Shown: positions 40,436 to 57,251, numbered from the stretch's first letter. The stretch is DNA of 64,000 bases from an uncultured Acidobacteriota bacterium (GCA_963827655.1 CAWHCF010000045.1:56830-120829); one strand, 5' to 3'. The notes: a model not told the origin generated them from the sequence alone. Numbers and translations are program-made.

Positions 40436-40678
40436 GCAGCGGGACGCTCGTCCTCTCACCCTGATGAACCGGTCTGAGTGACCGCCCGATCGCCGCCGTG
40501 GCGAAAGCCTGCAAAATTTCATCCCAGCCTAAAAGTTTTGGTCTATGATCGGCCAATCGGATGCCGCAGAACGGTCGGACCGGGCGCTCGAGTTGACATA
40601 ATGTCTGCCTTATCGGAAACTGGGCCGACCCCGCAACCGGGGGGCGCGAGGAAAACGGCTCTTGTTCGGCCTATCCGC
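40436..40678 (+). repeat. dif+oriIS-like unit, copy A; dif-like core 40591-40620
   Basis: AGTTGACATAA-TGTCTGCC-TTATCGGAAAC, then a GC hairpin and GAAAACGGCTCTTGTTCGGCCTATCCGC; nearly identical to 56962-57199. Confidence 0.9.
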
Positions 40679-40810
40679 TTCGTGGTTCGCTTGGTTGGCG
40701 TAGGTGGCCGACGTCTGGTTGAAAGGGATCAACTGCAGGAGAACTGTGGATCCAAAACGCAGTTTATTTCGACCATCCGCGCAACTATAATGAACAGCTA
40801 GCTACGGGAG

Positions 40811-41443
40811 GTGGAGATGGCAGCGCCGGCGTGGAACATAAGCGGCCAGTATTACGAAACCTGCAATTGCGACTTTGTTTGTCCGTGCCTGCCCGGAAAG
40901 ATGGCAGTTAGCCCGACGAAAGGGACTTGCACGTTTGTGATGGCATTTGAGATCGAGCGGGGGAGCTACGGCAGTCTGCCGCTTGACGGGTTAGGCTTCA
41001 TCGTCCTCGGTTTTACGCCTGGGGCGATGGCTAATGGCAACTGGTCAGTTGGGTTGATCGCCGATGAGCGCGCGAGCGTCCAGCAGCGCGACGCCATCAC
41101 TGCCATCGCGAGCGGCGCAGCAGGAGGGCCGATGGCAGCGCTGTCGGGGCTCGTGGGTCAGTTTCTGGGTGTGGCGTCTGCGCCGATTCGCTTCGATCGC
41201 ACCGGGGCCAGATGGTCGGTGGAAGCGCAGGGCCTGGTGGATATGGCTGCGGAAGGCGTGACCGGGCTGGATCCAAATGCAACAGAGCCTCTCCACCTCG
41301 ACAACACAGGCCATCCGGCTGCAGACCGCTTTGCTCTCGCCCGTGCGTTGAAGACCCACGTAAACGCGCTAGGGCTGAAGGTGGCCGAGGCCACAGGCAA
41401 GAACAACGGACAATATGCGCCGTTTTCCTGGCAGGGGTCGTAA
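40811..41443 (+). CDS. DUF1326 family protein
   Basis: YYETCNCDFVCPC; standard pairing with DUF2182. Confidence 0.88.
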   Translation: MEMAAPAWNISGQYYETCNCDFVCPCLPGKMAVSPTKGTCTFVMAFEIERGSYGSLPLDGLGFIVLGFTPGAMANGNWSVGLIADERASVQQRDAITAIASGAAGGPMAALSGLVGQFLGVASAPIRFDRTGARWSVEAQGLVDMAAEGVTGLDPNATEPLHLDNTGHPAADRFALARALKTHVNALGLKVAEATGKNNGQYAPFSWQGS

Positions 41444-42239
41444 CTTGCCAGCTTCACCGACCGCGACTGTCGCGGCTCTTCCCGTACCGGACCGCGTTCT
41501 CATCGCTGCGTGCATTGCTCTGATCACATTTCTCGCGTGGCTCTATCTGGTTCATCTCGATCGTCAAATGGCGATTGATCTGCGGCACGTGCAGATGATG
41601 GCAGAGCGTGGCATGACAATGGACATGCCGTGCATGAGCACCGATGTCTCTCTCACGTTCGCTATGTGGGTAGTCATGATGGTAGGCATGATGGCGCCTT
41701 CGGCGTCACCGATGCTTATGCTATTCGGTGCATCCAGGGCAGGCCGCGGCGAGCGCGGCGTGTCGATGGCAACGCTGGCGTTCGGGCTCGGATACGTGGC
41801 AGTTTGGGCCGGGTTCAGCTTGTGTGCGACTTTTGCTCAGTGGGCGTTGCACCAAGCCGCAATGCTGTCTTCGGCTGGAATGGCTTTGTCCAGCGGACAT
41901 CTGAGCGGCGGCGTTCTGATCGCCGCAGGCATCTATCAACTGACTGCCTGGAAAAGCAGATGTTTGACACATTGCCGGAGCCCGCTCGGATTCCTCATGA
42001 CGAATTGGCGCGATGGGACCAGCGGCGCGTTCGGCATGGGATTGCGCCACGGAATTTATTGTCTTGGATGTTGTTGGGCGTTGATGTGCGTGCTGTTCGC
42101 TGTGGGTGTGATGAATCTTGTATGGATAGCAATCTTAGCCGTCCTAGTTCTGGCTGAGAAGATCGGACCGGCCGGCGCCGCGTTGGCTCGCTTTGCAGGG
42201 GTTGCTTTGGTGCTGGTGGGTGTTTTGCGCTTGTTCTGA
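41415..42239 (+). CDS. DUF2182 metal-binding membrane protein (start uncertain)
   Basis: MWVVMMVGMMAPS, KSRCLTHCRSP, YCLGCCWALM. Confidence 0.9.
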   Translation: MRRFPGRGRNLPASPTATVAALPVPDRVLIAACIALITFLAWLYLVHLDRQMAIDLRHVQMMAERGMTMDMPCMSTDVSLTFAMWVVMMVGMMAPSASPMLMLFGASRAGRGERGVSMATLAFGLGYVAVWAGFSLCATFAQWALHQAAMLSSAGMALSSGHLSGGVLIAAGIYQLTAWKSRCLTHCRSPLGFLMTNWRDGTSGAFGMGLRHGIYCLGCCWALMCVLFAVGVMNLVWIAILAVLVLAEKIGPAGAALARFAGVALVLVGVLRLF

Positions 42240-42492
42240 GCTGACCGTGAAGTGAGCACATGACACGCATAGAGGTTGCCTACTTCTGGTAGGCTTTCGC
42301 CTTCCCGTCGGAGTTGCTGATGAGCATGGTCACGTGGCTGATCGTGGGCGTTGTCGTTGTCGTCCTGTATGTCTGGTAACATAAAGCCCCTTCTCAGAAC
42401 CTGAGACTCGAGCTGAAAATGACGCTTGTTTCCGCTTGTTTCTCTTATCCTCTTGCTAGAGGTGGAAGACAGAGTGGGTTAGCGCTTCAATC

Positions 42493-42658
42493 GGTGCTTC
42501 CGTCATCAAGTGTTGCTGGGATGGACTTAAAACTTTATGAGGCAGGATATTACAGACGAATTTGACTTCAGCAGTTCTAATCTGAGCTAAATCGGACATA
42601 AGTATCTTAGACACAATTAGATGGGACCGAGCCAGCAACAGTAGATTGCGGAAGCACC
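42493..42658. mobile_element. MITE (166 bp), same family as 28442-28606, followed by an extra terminal repeat (42659-42679)
   Basis: GGTGCTTCCGTCATCAAGTGTTGCTGG ... CCAGCAACAGTAGATTGCGGAAGCACC, then ACAATTGATGACGGAAGCACC. Confidence 0.72.
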
Positions 42659-42756
42659 ACAATTGATGACGGAAGCACCAGGATTGCGACAATTCGTCCT
42701 GGTCGCGTGGATGATGACGGCAAATTCGGAATTCGCCAGGGACAGGAAGTAAGCCG

Positions 42757-55214: not shown

Positions 55215-55230
55215 TCATATAATAGGGCGT

Positions 55231-56754
55231 ATGTCGCGAACCGTCTGGCTGGCACAGGGCACAGTGCTCTCGTTCTTCGCTGCTGCATTTACGGCTGCCG
55301 CTCAAACACCCTGTGAGGAACTCAGGTCGCTCCACCTTCCAGGGACAACGGTCACTCTCGCCGAAGCATTGACGGCGCGGCCTTTCCGGCCGCCCGGCGC
55401 CCAGCCCGGAATGAACGATATCGATATCCCGGCCCACTGCCGGGTAGCGGTTACGTTGAAGCCCTCGCCGGATTCCGACATCAAGGCCGAACTCTGGCTT
55501 CCCGCCGGCACAGCCTGGAATGGCAAGTTCCTCGGGGTGGGGGGCGGTGGTTTCGTAGGGTTTATCAACACCGGGGGTATGGCTTCCGCACTTCGGGAAG
55601 GCTACGCAACCGCTTCCACCGACACAGGGCACGAAGGATCGAGCGCCGCATTCGCGCTGGGACATCCGGAGAAGGTGATCGACTTCGCCTATCGCGCCGT
55701 TCACCAGATGACGGTTGCTTCCAAGGCGATCATCAACGCGCATTATGGCCGTGAGCCGCGCTTTTCCTATTTCCAGGGCTGCTCGACCGGCGGCCGCCAA
55801 GGGCTCATGGAAGCGCAACGTTATCCCGAAGACTACGACGGCATCATCGCCGGCGCGCCAGCGCACAGGCAGATTGACCTCTGCGCGTGGCGTATGGCGA
55901 TCATGAGGGCGGTCCTCATGGAGCCATCGAAAGCGCTTCCACCGGAGAAGACATCCATCGTCAACAAAGCTGTCCTCGAGCAATGCGACGCACTGGATGG
56001 GGTCAAGGACGGCCTGCTCACTGACCCGCGCAAGTGCCGGTTCAATCCGGCAACGCTCCTGTGCAAAGCCGCCGCACAAGACGGGTGTCTCACGGCTCCG
56101 CAAATCGAAACCGTGAAAATGGCCTATTCCGACGCGAGGAAAAGGAACGGCGACTTGATCTATCCCGGATTGGTTCCCGGGGGCGAAACCGGGTGGCTGC
56201 TGCCGGGCCGATCCACCGAACCTGGTGGCATCGACCTCGGCATGTTCCGCTACATCGCCCATCAGGATGCAGCTTGGGACTGGCGAAACTTCGACTTGGA
56301 GCGGGACACGGAGCTCGCGATGCGGAGCGCCGGATTCATGCATGCGGCGAACCCCGATCTGTCGGCCTTTAAGGCTCGCGGCGGCAAGCTGCTCCTCTAC
56401 CACGGTTGGAACGATGGCGGCTCGGGCGGCGCAATCTCGCCGCTGAGCACGATCAGCTACTACGAAAGCGTGCTGAAGAAAATGGGCCGGAATCAGGACG
56501 ACTGGCTGCGTCTGTTCATGGCCCCCGGCATGGCACACTGCGGCGGCGGGCCGGGCCCCAATCAGTTCAACGCGCTCGCGGCTCTCGAGCGGTGGCGAGA
56601 GGCGAACGTCGCGCCGGATATACTCCTCGCGGTTCGCGTTCTCAACAATCGGGTTGATATGACCCGCCCGCTCTGTCCGTATCCGCAGGTGGCGGTGTAT
56701 CGGGGTTCCGGCAGCAGCAACGACGCTGCTAACTTCGCCTGCAAGGCGCCGTGA
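55231..56754 (+). CDS. Tannase/feruloyl esterase family hydrolase
   Basis: STDTGH, GCSTGG, YHGWND, PGMAHCGGG, RPLCPYP. Confidence 0.93.
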   Translation: MSRTVWLAQGTVLSFFAAAFTAAAQTPCEELRSLHLPGTTVTLAEALTARPFRPPGAQPGMNDIDIPAHCRVAVTLKPSPDSDIKAELWLPAGTAWNGKFLGVGGGGFVGFINTGGMASALREGYATASTDTGHEGSSAAFALGHPEKVIDFAYRAVHQMTVASKAIINAHYGREPRFSYFQGCSTGGRQGLMEAQRYPEDYDGIIAGAPAHRQIDLCAWRMAIMRAVLMEPSKALPPEKTSIVNKAVLEQCDALDGVKDGLLTDPRKCRFNPATLLCKAAAQDGCLTAPQIETVKMAYSDARKRNGDLIYPGLVPGGETGWLLPGRSTEPGGIDLGMFRYIAHQDAAWDWRNFDLERDTELAMRSAGFMHAANPDLSAFKARGGKLLLYHGWNDGGSGGAISPLSTISYYESVLKKMGRNQDDWLRLFMAPGMAHCGGGPGPNQFNALAALERWREANVAPDILLAVRVLNNRVDMTRPLCPYPQVAVYRGSGSSNDAANFACKAP

Positions 56755-56757
56755 TAG

Positions 56758-56780
56758 CGGGAGCTGGCGACCGGCTCCCG
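56758..56780 (+). terminator. Hairpin just after the esterase stop codon
   Basis: CGGGAGCTGG-CGA-CCGGCTCCCG; no U-tract. Confidence 0.4.
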
Positions 56781-56961
56781 GATAGCGCTCGTGCAGTTCC
56801 TAGACCGACGGTCACACTCGCGCCCGGCCTTCGTCGCGCTGGGCCACAACGGATCTCGGGAGGTCAGTTGCAGCGCGGTATTCGTTGTGTGAGCCCAGGA
56901 ACCTACATGCTACGCGTAGGCTAAACCGGACAAGATTCGCTGGAAATTCCCCCACACTTCA

Positions 56962-57199
56962 GCAGCGGGACGCTCGTCCTCTCACCCTGATGAACCGGTC
57001 TGAGTGACCGCCCGATCGCCGCCGTGGCGAAAGCCTGCAAAATTTCATCCCAGCCTAAAAGTTTTGGTCTATGATCGGCCAATCGGATGCCGCAGAACGG
57101 TCGGACCGGGCGCTCGAGTTGACATAATGTCTTACCTTATCGGAAACTGGGCCGACCCCGCAGCCGGGGGGCGCGAGGAAAACGGCTCTTTTCGGCCTA
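56962..57199 (+). repeat. dif+oriIS-like unit, copy D; dif-like core 57117-57147 (9 bp spacer)
   Basis: About 240 bp near-identical to 40436-40673; right end slightly degenerate (CTCTTTTCGGCCTAGCGC). Confidence 0.9.
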
Positions 57200-57251
57200 G
57201 CGCGGCGCCAGGCCGCAACCCAAGTTTTCGAGATACGTGGGCGCCGCGCGC

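Follow-up and report, generated by a model that had tools for sequence, protein, structure and literature searches.

Same-strand repeats in an Acidobacteriota genome as probable oriIS-side remnants of an ISCR-like IS91-family element

Transposases of the IS91 family are HUH enzymes; they act through rolling-circle replication, which starts at a fixed origin end (oriIS) and proceeds to a terminator end (terIS). Helitrons, with their rolling-circle HUH enzyme, and 5'-truncated LINE copies, made by processive copying, likewise start from one fixed end, leave dead-on-arrival truncated copies that retain it, and capture gene fragments; these eukaryotic systems, with other enzymes, hosts and terminal structures, may serve as analogies, and homology is not claimed. 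For the bacterial elements, an excerpt of PMC13181058 describes IS91 as moving via a single-strand circle with failure of termination in 1-10% of events, places subterminal palindromes in the ori end of the family, and gives CTTG/GTTC-type targets for IS91, IS801 and IS1294. For IS801, passages of PMC3189936 report that adjacent DNA is mobilised and that experiments yielded right-end miniatures 229, 360 and 679 nt long, in 26% of transposition events; true miniatures were recognised by a left end resembling the left end of the element, and the right end alone was kept in 5 of 17 IS801 fragments in Pseudomonas syringae genomes. In ISCR1 the oriIS region measures 232 nt and contains outward promoters (excerpt of PMC6218425), and parts of PMC7722449 and PMC12772301 describe tandem or composite ISCR structures as well as ori-gene-ori sandwiches.

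We analysed a window of 64,000 nt, the whole stretch of DNA under study, from an uncultured Acidobacteriota bacterium, in which an earlier note had described six same-strand repeats of variable leftward extent and interpreted them as a gene-capture array. All six were recovered by a repeat search, MAFFT and BLAST, left-truncated to between 21 and 243 nt (MAFFT, BLAST) and with the common right end ...GCTCTTGTTC(G/A)GCCTATCCGC; as described before, copies A, B, F, E and C terminate exactly at CCTATCCGC and the end of D is degenerate. Copy A (40436..40678; like the other five, on the + strand) is a 243-nt solo ori-side end of an element termed here IS27. It represents the whole repeat unit, namely the last ~45 nt of a transposase ORF and ~200 nt of non-coding DNA, the ori region, and is 96% identical to a transposase-linked copy on contig C27. 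Copy D (56959..57199) is a solo end of ~241 nt whose left limit agrees with that of A to within 3 nt, and its last bases are replaced where another repeated element starts at about 57196. In copy B (50231..50341) the ori end measures 111 nt and still has the conserved block and the hairpin; an IS27 transposase 3' fragment (50187..50230, +; IS27 positions 2337-2380) is fused directly to this copy (BLAST, direct reading). Because its left flank is thus more IS27, B is an internally deleted copy. Copy C (55114..55214) is a 101-nt ori end, which may reach left to about 55088 through a diverged stretch. Copy E (53228..53269) consists of 42 nt, 100% identical to the end of A, with half of the hairpin only, and copy F (52613..52633) of the terminal 19-21 nt of the ori end, whose match at 21 of 21 positions cannot be chance. 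The conserved ori block and the complete hairpin are missing from both E and F. The truncation point and the base changes differ in every copy. The A variant of the right end occurs only in B, F and C, being absent from the other three window copies, from six other genome copies and from eight metagenome copies. This private base change common to B, F and C indicates that some copies arose locally.

The earlier proposal of an IS91/ISCR-type oriIS at the fixed right end was borne out. A search of the unit across the genome found a copy downstream of an IS91-family transposase gene on C27, where the unit directly continues a Y2_Tnp/Zn_Tnp_IS91 gene (ORF end ...ILECLGLPSRAPPIAS...; Y2_Tnp E 1.4e-21; best NCBIfam match 'ISCR element clade Ia', 174 bits). 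This sole IS27 transposase gene in the genome is split over three frames and so only putatively active, which counts against our main reading; the split may be an assembly error. Contigs of other runs differ from the window by single-base indels, one of which removes the PhoD frameshift. A sister element, IS52, is ~70% identical to IS27 and 2147 nt long, with one 527-aa ORF that matches Y2_Tnp (96 bits), Zn_Tnp_IS91 (65 bits) and, over near full length, ISCR clade Ia (389 bits). IS52 has the same terminal motif as IS27 and left-truncated copies too; no terminal inverted repeat was found in it (score 6 versus a shuffle mean of 7.5), nor any target duplication in two independent contexts. The terminal positions of IS27 and IS52 match at 23/30, and their hairpins (CCCCG..CGGGG and GGGTG..CACCC, respectively) both lie 35-36 nt from the end. 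The ori region comprises a conserved ~30-nt box, a subterminal hairpin and the terminal motif AAAACGG..TTGTTC..CCTATCCGC, features common to at least three sister lineages in this genome, with the box, TGAC(A/G)TAA...TT(A/C)TC.GAA, common to four. Over its last ~28 nt the unit agrees at 17-19 of 28 positions with the end that follows an ISCR-like transposase on plasmid NZ_MK757441.1; 500 shuffles gave 11.8 matches on average and never more than 16. An ori-end profile detected 38 sites in the genome, and a Y2_Tnp match precedes only 7 of them. The link to a transposase, the same end in a sister element and the genome-wide occurrence of such ends establish the oriIS reading.

The likeness to ISCR elements extends beyond the family assignment of the IS52 transposase. 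Over 94% of its length the transposase shares 40.6% identity with a 513-aa enzyme found on at least 5000 resistance plasmids. A non-coding oriIS region of about 200-250 nt follows the gene, its end conforms to the type ...CCTAT(A/C)CC, and variable DNA adjoins the ori end. However, the scores lie far under the curated cut-offs (389 versus 925 bits, and 93 versus 125 for IS91), which points to a distant clade. The host differs as well, being an uncultured soil bacterium, with a Solibacteraceae MAG as the only named relative of a hit, and the cargo is ordinary accessory metabolism without resistance cassettes or a class 1 integron. Here, moreover, solo ends without a transposase gene dominate, in clusters of 4-8. 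As with IS801, IS91 and IS1294, truncated copies retain the fixed ori end and there are no inverted repeats or target duplications, whereas a GTTC/CTTG-like target or left-end tetranucleotide is not visible. Integron arrays are similar in outline only, in their same-orientation repeats between unrelated genes and a possible upstream promoter. A scan of 30 ORFs in the interval from 35 to 64 kb revealed no IntI-type tyrosine recombinase, the only recombinase being a large serine recombinase (62009-63979); furthermore, the repeats do not have the conserved, imperfectly palindromic architecture of attC sites, and the segments include gene fragments and opposite-strand genes.

Copy A occupies an ordinary intergenic gap, and a DUF1326 and PpoB2/DUF2182 gene pair (40811..42236, +; Pfam E 4.9e-47 and 2.4e-65) begins 132 nt past it. 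Sulfatase 1 (50368..51759, +; Pfam Sulfatase and SGSH_C) is complete, with its ATG 26 nt past the end of B. Sulfatase 2 (51759..52612, +) is 3'-truncated, cut after residue ~285 exactly at F, where the Pfam match also stops (285); its paralog on C34 has 617 aa at 69% identity, and the missing remainder was not found in the assembly. Beyond F lies a fragment of a multihaem cytochrome c gene (52634..53227, -; three-frame translation), with seven CxxCH-type motifs across two frames, no 5' end and a stop codon supplied by F. Between E and C is an operon for a zinc-ribbon protein, an anti-sigma-like protein and an ECF sigma factor (53420..55012, -; Pfam), which matches contigs of three runs; the fit breaks at 55078 and, in run X1, also at 53270. 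A complete tannase/feruloyl esterase gene (55231..56751, +; Pfam E 7.9e-120) has its ATG 16 nt past the end of C. Since the ECF operon and the cytochrome fragment are on the minus strand, they are not transcriptionally downstream cargo. The argument that unrelated flanks exclude simple insertion holds in so far as the flanks of F, E and C are truly non-contiguous, but it is insufficient alone. The cut sulfatase, the cytochrome gene without its 5' end and the contigs of three runs leaving the window at 55078 indicate that at least some junctions need deletion or rearrangement.

We propose, with a probability of roughly 0.6, that the repeats are leftover oriIS-side ends of IS27, an IS91-family ISCR-like element. 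The array is a dense example of a known mobile-DNA scar, and a new gene-capture machine is not demonstrated. Most solo ends would be by-products of rolling-circle transposition with the transposase acting in trans, originating either from premature termination, a LINE-like truncation from the terminator side, or from one-ended events that took left-flanking DNA along, and ordinary deletions would have shortened some copies further, for example F and E. Two local lineages within the window could be distinguished, one of B, C and F with nested lengths of 155, 101 and 21 nt and the other of A/D and E; the array would then reflect recurrent local events in a variable region rich in mobile elements. 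Under this by-product reading the array would not be a dedicated cassette system. The longer copies, of 91 nt or more, might be working origins and might provide an outward promoter into sulfatase 1 and the tannase gene.

The distribution of fragments in the genome supports this reading. BLAST located six more copies of the unit beyond the window (C6, C2, two on C27, C40 and C31), and same-orientation clusters comprise seven ends on C45 (eight with F) and four each on C9, C34 and C40. Eleven truncated IS27 copies retain the ori end and four pieces are internal (61863-61979, 48024-48105, 50187-50230 and one on C6); the upstream ~1 kb of IS27 is absent from every IS27 piece in the genome. Two truncated IS52 copies in the genome retain the ori end and none the left end, and a third with the ori end, 715 nt long, is on a metagenome contig. 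Several observations count against the by-product reading. No consensus target tetranucleotide appeared beside the ori end in the 16 flanks read, F, E and C are not simple insertions, and a sigma-70 scan of the unit was negative for promoters. Truncated copies also begin with no visible likeness to the left end of the element: IS52 starts with GGCC and its truncated copies with GCGG and CTGT.

An alternative explanation, unlikely in our view yet deserving serious weight, is pure decay in situ, in which independent full-length insertions later lost their transposase sides and neighbouring DNA through illegitimate recombination, with no role for abortive or one-ended transposition. The F junction, with its ambiguous overlap of 1-2 nt with sulfatase 2 and about 1 kb of that gene gone, resembles a plain deletion joint, the cytochrome gene is cut by E, and B has an internal deletion, as probably does metagenome copy L066. 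Another route to an apparently truncated copy is seen in L072, where a ~2.7-kb insertion splits the ori region, and in passages of PMC3189936, Bardaji et al. place reorganisations behind most natural IS801 fragments. Random deletions, however, predict about equal numbers of terminator-side fragments, whereas the ratio of ori-side to terminator-side fragments is 11 to 0 for IS27, also a difference from IS801, and 2 to 0 for IS52. The private A variant and the nested lengths in B, F and C favour local copying over three independent arrivals, and six independent insertions in one orientation within 17 kb would be unlikely, barring a replication-direction bias.

We find it doubtful that the locus is a capture array, a sharper form of the earlier note's reading, in which an HUH transposase would prefer resident oriIS junctions for cleavage, termination and integration, and units of cargo plus ori end would be excised between successive ori ends and stacked next to a functional ori without an integrase or attC. 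Every segment begins exactly at the preceding ori end, the ECF module fits X1 contigs between 53270 and 55078 only, which are array boundaries, and same-orientation clusters occur on four contigs. C44 and L073 share a left flank and a truncated IS52 end and differ in their right flanks, which shows that the ori junctions of truncated copies do take part in such events. An 'oriIS-gene-oriIS sandwich' has also been proposed for ISCR28 and armA, as cited in part of PMC12772301. Nevertheless, F (21 nt) and E (42 nt), without the conserved box or a complete hairpin, could hardly start or end the reaction; IS91 requires about 82 nt (excerpt of PMC13181058). The integron-like device of the earlier note was not upheld, as its supposed cargo includes two remnants of truncated genes and an operon on the opposite strand, and co-oriented ORF starts after ori ends are not enriched genome-wide (10/37 versus 31% at random positions). 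The cargo segments are single-copy in this genome, so that no donor is visible, and circles or alternative cassette orders were not observed. Comparable right-end miniatures and ori-cargo-ori sandwiches have, besides, already been published.

Joining of unrelated loci or strains through the shared repeat into a chimeric contig is very improbable. The genome is a 53-contig metagenome-type assembly of 90% completeness, no single run holds over 64% of the sampled words of 50100-57400, and Logan contigs are unable to span repeats longer than about 31 nt. On the other hand, F and E are shorter than any read, so no mis-joins are possible there, and each copy has an individual truncation point and base changes. 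Logan contigs of runs X1 and X4, which belong to different studies, cross the right junction of B into sulfatase 1 and extend 66 and 39 nt into the repeat, and the same architecture recurs on other contigs and on independent metagenome contigs; the single-base indel pattern would also fit a long-read assembly spanning 243-nt repeats. A host regulatory module duplicated before genes, either a shared promoter with a 5' leader or a small RNA family, is scarcely credible despite a TTGACA in the unit, overlapped by TGACATAAT readable as an extended -10 (direct reading), and the short distance to the starts of the sulfatase 1 and tannase genes, because the unit continues a transposase ORF, Rfam gave 0 hits at the gathering score (two weak off-target hits at E < 1), folding is no better than that of shuffled sequence (z 0.2-0.7), the promoter scan was negative, gene starts are not enriched and the box is missing from the 21-42-nt copies; a promoter-carrier role is compatible with the by-product explanation.

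Other element pieces lie in the window outside the six copies. A solo oriIS-type end of a sister IS91/ISCR-like lineage (16741..16836, +; nhmmer with the ori-end profile, E 2.6e-19) terminates in ...GAAAATGACTCTTTGTTCCGCCTGTCCGC outside the reported array. A short solo ori end of a third, 'IS34-type' lineage (42376..42450, +) has the right end ...GCTTGTTTCTCTTATCC, common to longer copies (77-278 nt) on C34, C40 and C27, whose left limits are scattered over ~200 nt. A 3'-end fragment of an IS91-family transposase gene (48024..48130, +; BLAST and direct reading) is IS27-like first, then diverges towards another lineage, and has no ori end. An internal fragment of the IS27 transposase gene (61863..61979, +; positions 1924-2040, 98% identical) adjoins the 3' end of the serine recombinase gene (Pfam match). 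These additional pieces all share the orientation of the six copies.

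The six same-strand repeats that the earlier note had located were recovered by a repeat search of the window and by alignment, and the alignments bore out its description of one common right end combined with differing left limits. The families into which the search grouped them have in common the terminal sequence ...GCTCTTGTTC(G/A)GCCTATCCGC. Named A, B, F, E, C and D from left to right, the copies vary in length: A (40436-40678) and D (56959-57199) are both ~243 nt long, and B, C, E and F measure 111, 101, 42 and 21 nt. D has lost its final bases where another repeated element starts, and the right end is intact in the other five, as had been claimed. 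BLAST of the 243-nt A-type repeat, hereafter the unit, against the 8.18-Mb assembly of 53 contigs returned 39 matches at E <= 10, including 11 true copies, all with E <= 2.8e-10. Five of these lie in the window, F being too short for this search and known from the repeat search, and six elsewhere, on contigs C6, C2, C27 (two copies), C40 and C31.

Three of the outside copies point to the source of the unit. The sequence to its left is common to C6, C2 and C27; C6 and C2 reach 123 and 27 nt further into a transposase gene than A, and the C27 copy runs on uninterrupted from that gene, lying directly downstream of it on the oriIS side (oriIS, or ori end, being the fixed right-hand origin end of IS91/ISCR elements). 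On C27 the left sequence belongs to a long ORF, of which it forms the 3' end (...CPRC...ILECLGLPSRAPPIAS...) and which matches Pfam Y2_Tnp with E 1.4e-21; the start of Y2_Tnp is in an upstream frame, and a sub-threshold Zn_Tnp_IS91 match is in another. This element, IS27, scored 77.8 bits for Y2_Tnp (PF04986; split over frames, cut-off 20.9) and 24.1 bits for Zn_Tnp_IS91 (PF14319), slightly below the cut-off of 26.3. In NCBIfam it comes closest to 'ISCR element clade Ia family transposase' and next closest to 'IS91 family transposase', without reaching the curated cut-off of either. A control Y2_Tnp search matched none of 14 well-known genomes. Because the C27 sequence is continuous with this Y2_Tnp/ISCR-like ORF, the unit is the last ~45 nt of the transposase gene plus ~200 nt of non-coding DNA from the oriIS side of IS27, an IS91/ISCR-type element. 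The search proposed in the earlier note, for a copy downstream of an intact IS91-family transposase gene, succeeded in part: the C27 copy is joined to the gene, but the gene in this single near-complete IS27 copy is broken into three frames. The split may be an assembly error; the window itself differs from the contigs of other sequencing runs by single-base indels. Among the IS27 pieces, 11 truncated copies retain the ori end and four are internal, and the upstream ~1 kb occurs in no truncated piece found in the genome. Aligning IS27 to the left end of its sister element IS52 gave nothing convincing for a left end. In 29 of 36 genomes of the same family the match, at 64-80% identity, was limited to the transposase-coding part and never took in the final ~240 nt; the relatives compared included none of the same genus.

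IS52 is ~70% identical to IS27 in the gene and could be bounded at 2147 nt through a 99% identical copy in a metagenome contig. Its single 527-aa ORF scored 96.2 bits for Y2_Tnp (cut-off 20.9) and 64.9 bits for Zn_Tnp_IS91 (cut-off 26.3). With NF052416 (ISCR clade Ia) and NF033538 (IS91) the scores were 389.2 and 93.1 bits; since neither reaches its curated cut-off (925 and 125), the elements are clear homologues but distant relatives, outside both named clades. The IS91 family is characterized by the Y2_Tnp domain, a gene-adjacent ori end and a conserved ori terminus with a subterminal palindrome, all present in IS27 and IS52, and by a lack of inverted repeats and of target duplication, as seen in IS52. 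The inverted-repeat comparison was made on IS52, of which both ends are defined, and detected none (first 60 nt against the reverse complement of the last 60: best score 6, shuffle mean 7.5). Similarly, no direct repeat flanks the two IS52 insertions compared, on C52 and in metagenome locus L067. The elements are distant ISCR-like members of the IS91 family.

The right end of IS52, ...GAAAACGGGCCTTTGTTCCACCTATCCGC, agrees with that of IS27 at 23 of 30 terminal positions, and in both elements a hairpin, differing in sequence, lies 35-36 nt from the end. Two more lineages have the same layout, IS34-type and one at window 16741-16836, and the box TGAC(A/G)TAA...TT(A/C)TC.GAA is common to the ends of all four. 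A 513-aa transposase found in at least 5000 plasmid records shares 40.6% identity with the IS52 transposase over 94% of the length of the latter. In one of them, NZ_MK757441.1, the DNA ~250 nt downstream of this gene ends ...GGTTGAACTTCCTATACCC, a terminal motif that we take to be the oriIS of an ISCR-like element (the record has no such annotation). It agrees with the IS27/IS52 ends at 17-19 of 28 positions, whereas 500 shuffles averaged 11.8 and never exceeded 16, so that the likeness to ISCR ends pointed out in the earlier note is confirmed with real sequence. Beside the ori end, where IS91-family elements have a target tetranucleotide of the CTTG/GTTC type, no consensus emerged over 16 right flanks, the final GC being assignable to element or target. 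The left-end tetranucleotide is GGCC in IS52 and GCGG and CTGT in its truncated copies, and these do not match. IS801-type miniatures combine an intact right end, seen here in five of the six window copies, with a left tetranucleotide resembling that of the full element.

A profile of the ~100-nt end found 38 sites at E <= 0.01 in the genome, and only seven of them lie downstream of a Y2_Tnp match. Most are solo ends, or ori ends lacking a transposase gene. Ends in one orientation form groups of seven on the contig of the window (eight with F) and of four each on C9, C34 and C40; orientation is mixed on C27 and C52. The groups at C9:63978-79026 and C34:98861-117668 each contain four same-orientation solo ori ends and no Y2_Tnp match. 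That at C40:65180-70046 also contains four, with a partial Y2_Tnp match at 69526-69750 just upstream of the last end, itself a weak hit. On C34, three copies show 99.6% identity to one another over 266-278 nt. Left truncation with retention of the right end recurs in IS52 (849 and 717 nt for the two genome copies, 715 nt for one in a metagenome contig) and in the IS34-type lineage, whose eight copies share a single right end but start at points 64 to 278 nt away from it. In a pattern scan such ends, with varied left limits, also turned up in one named metagenome-assembled genome (Solibacteraceae) and 12 metagenome contigs; parts of the window itself are present in soil and rhizosphere runs of 17 studies. 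A relation between orientation and replication direction was sought, for which the local GC skew proved too weak: in our own tally of 19 loci, the orientation of the ends agreed with the sign of the skew at 11 and disagreed at eight, and with long-ORF strand bias it agreed at 13 and disagreed at six.

We consider a mixed origin, in part linked to transposition and in part due to ordinary decay, the best explanation of the solo ends, with a probability of roughly 0.6. PMC13181058 describes IS91-family transposition as beginning at oriIS and proceeding towards the terminator end, terIS, with a bottom-strand circle as the functional intermediate and a failure of termination in 1-14% of events that mobilizes DNA beyond terIS. 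Among the IS801 events captured in PMC3189936, 26% were right-end miniatures, with lengths of 229, 360 and 679 nt. Premature termination of such rolling-circle transposition would leave left-truncated copies with the ori end, and one-ended events from terminator-less copies could produce further solo ends. A transposition-linked origin is in keeping with the fixed end, with the strong bias towards fragments from the ori side, with the surplus of solo ends and with the nesting of the local lineages. Within the window, A in place of G in ...TTC(A/G)GCC is confined to B, F and C, with G in the other three copies, in the six other genome copies and in eight metagenome copies. The lengths of these three are nested (B 155 nt including a fused fragment, C 101 nt and F 21 nt), and E is identical to the end of A; some of the copies, at least, therefore arose on the spot from longer ones nearby. 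The left limits of A and D agree within 3 nt, as a remobilized 243-nt miniature would show. Near-coincident truncation points (A and D; C31 and the metagenome locus L064; the second C27 copy and locus L068, within 3 nt) are not beyond chance: with ~14 breakpoints over 250 nt we estimate ~2.5 pairs within 3 nt, and the clustering is therefore no evidence. A reading of 48024-48105 and D as the halves of one split element (IS27 2459/2460) was rejected on the sequence, as 48024-48105 diverges into another lineage.

That decay alone accounts for the solo ends is rather unlikely given this one-sided retention, yet ordinary decay evidently contributes, because there are a deletion joint at F, internal deletions and a nested insertion. 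The last is seen in metagenome contig L072, where the IS27 ori region is split by a ~2.7-kb insertion into 597-787 and 3460-3539. The same junction of insertion and ori has two different right flanks, one in L063 and one in L069 and L072, which makes it probable that the composite moved to a new site by copying once the nested insertion had taken place.

The DNA between the copies bears on the proposal that the repeats build an array of captured genes. A is followed by a DUF1326 and PpoB2 pair, small repeats, a PhoD-like gene, small DUF genes, a glyoxalase gene and an IS3-like fragment. After B comes a complete sulfatase gene, its ATG 26 nt from the ori end, and then a second sulfatase gene that ends at residue ~285, exactly at F; its paralog is 617 aa long and 69% identical, and the remainder of the gene is absent from the assembly. 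Between F and E lies a multihaem cytochrome gene on the minus strand, its 5' end missing and its stop codon coming from F, and between E and C a minus-strand operon for a zinc-ribbon protein, an anti-sigma-like protein and an ECF sigma factor. C precedes a complete tannase gene, with the ATG 16 nt from the ori end, and D precedes other repeats and then an asparagine-synthase-like gene. The latter ORF (58249-59331) has a weak Pfam match over its N-terminal part (E 2.4e-6), with small ORFs upstream at 57004-57291. The supposed cargo is a mixture of intact genes, opposite-strand genes and dead fragments, as follows from this gene content. The claim that the copies are not simple insertions stands for F and E, which clearly join non-contiguous DNA; A could be a simple insertion, as its site is an ordinary gap between genes.

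Assembled contigs from other runs were compared with these junctions. For the ECF module, contigs from three runs of three studies fit at ~99.7% identity up to 55078, ~10 nt from the extended left limit of C, and the contig of run X1 also stops fitting at 53270, the base after E. Because the fit stops at these positions, the module has different neighbours in other populations. The junction of B with the first sulfatase gene is bridged by contigs of X1 and X4; A, C, D, E and F are bridged by none of the contigs listed under a 31-letter criterion, record 24 of X4 entering D by 30 nt and record 7 of X1 beginning 28 nt before the end of C. Depth, which is not counted as evidence here, was ~0 in the ECF bins of run X2 and 15-21 in its sulfatase and DUF1326 bins, and X1 showed the reverse. 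One X1 contig has a joint 51967>53169, for which we have no explanation.

Under the capture proposal, a HUH transposase acting in trans would use solo oriIS junctions for recombination. By initiating at one ori and terminating at the next it would excise a circle of cargo plus ori, and re-integration, preferentially at a resident ori junction, would build same-orientation cassette arrays. If a unit integrated where a resident ori is cleaved at initiation, exactly the order ori, new unit, old flank would result, and an ori-gene-ori sandwich has been proposed for ISCR28, as cited in PMC12772301. We nevertheless regard the proposal as improbable. In E and F the conserved box is missing and the hairpin is not intact. 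Each cargo segment is single-copy in the genome, so that a donor copy was found for none, and no circles were observed. There is no enrichment of gene starts either: co-oriented ORFs of at least 150 codons start within 120 nt after 10 of the 37 ends scored and after 31% of 4000 random positions, by a crude ORF caller and with two of 39 sites left out for an incomplete right end. The array does not qualify as an integron. Integrons have IntI and attI, with attC sites bounding the cassettes; here the repeats are transposon ends, and Pfam found no phage-integrase-type (IntI) recombinase among 30 ORFs at 35-64 kb. If the proposal were true, it would describe an integron-like system driven by a rolling-circle enzyme, with at least four such arrays in this genome (on the contig of the window, C9, C34 and C40).

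A structured or known RNA was rejected, as the ori region folded no better than shuffles and Rfam gave 0 hits at gathering score over the whole window (two weak off-target hits at E < 1 in 40300-40900), and no tRNA or tmRNA was found as a target. Outward promoters in the oriIS region are in print for ISCR (PMC6218425). Because a sigma-70 promoter and terminator scan of the unit gave 0 sites, the idea of a putative outward promoter here comes solely from TTGACA / TGACATAAT as read in the sequence.

ISCR/IS91 elements are known chiefly from resistance plasmids, and their pickup of neighbouring genes is still debated from few structures. Here the same machinery occurs in an uncultured soil bacterium, in four or more related lineages. 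Of the 38 origin ends detectable there, most lack a transposase gene; retention of the origin end is strongly favoured, and ends are grouped in one orientation. Truncated ori-side copies beside cargo are in print for IS801/ISCR (PMC3189936), as are tandem (PMC7722449) or sandwich (PMC12772301) structures for ISCR. What this genome adds is a new host, a larger number of lineages, the predominance of solo ends and the same-orientation clusters. No earlier description of solo-oriIS arrays in environmental bacteria was found in the literature searched. The genome offers a natural data set on how often rolling-circle transposition aborts or overruns, on whether truncated origins remain active and on whether resident origin junctions draw new insertions. 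Annotators should bear in mind that exact short repeats on one strand, set between genes that are unrelated, can be scars left by transposon origins.

The window holds several other features. A 167-nt element with terminal inverted repeats (42492-42658) has a 100% identical copy on C18 and copies of 84-98% identity on C28, C9, C41, C31 and C2. It seems to be MITE-like and variably present between populations, because X1 and X4 contigs skip most of it (joints 42515/42522 > 42633-42659). Short dispersed repeats of 50-140 nt, 80-97% identical and found on many contigs, lie at 42680-42746, 37025-37116, 49313-49364 and 57196-57350; tandem CAGCCTT-like heptamers (57255-57290) stand inside the repeat after D, with the same run in its C20 copy. 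C2 has, at 196-215 kb, many of these repeat types together with an IS27 solo end and a tannase paralog. The PhoD-like phosphatase gene (42757-44575) is read in two overlapping frames with a break near 43631, where X1 and X2 contigs are one base shorter, which would restore one frame; the break is probably an assembly indel error or a strain-specific mutation, and similar single-base indels occur at 49345, 51762, 51808, 54869 and 57219. Adjacent small DUF4160 and DUF2442 genes, a pair often annotated as toxin-antitoxin-like, are followed by DUF6429 (45074-46180). A minus-strand ORF with an IS3-type HTH_Tnp_1 domain (47411-47899), probably another insertion-sequence remnant, overlaps the 3' end of the glyoxalase-family gene, and depth was high in this bin in all four runs. 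A large serine recombinase gene on the minus strand (62009-63979), with Resolvase, Recombinase, zinc-ribbon and HTH_17 domains, reaches nearly to the end of the window, which is the end of the contig, and its 3' end lies ~30 nt from an IS27 transposase fragment; an integrated element may have its edge here.
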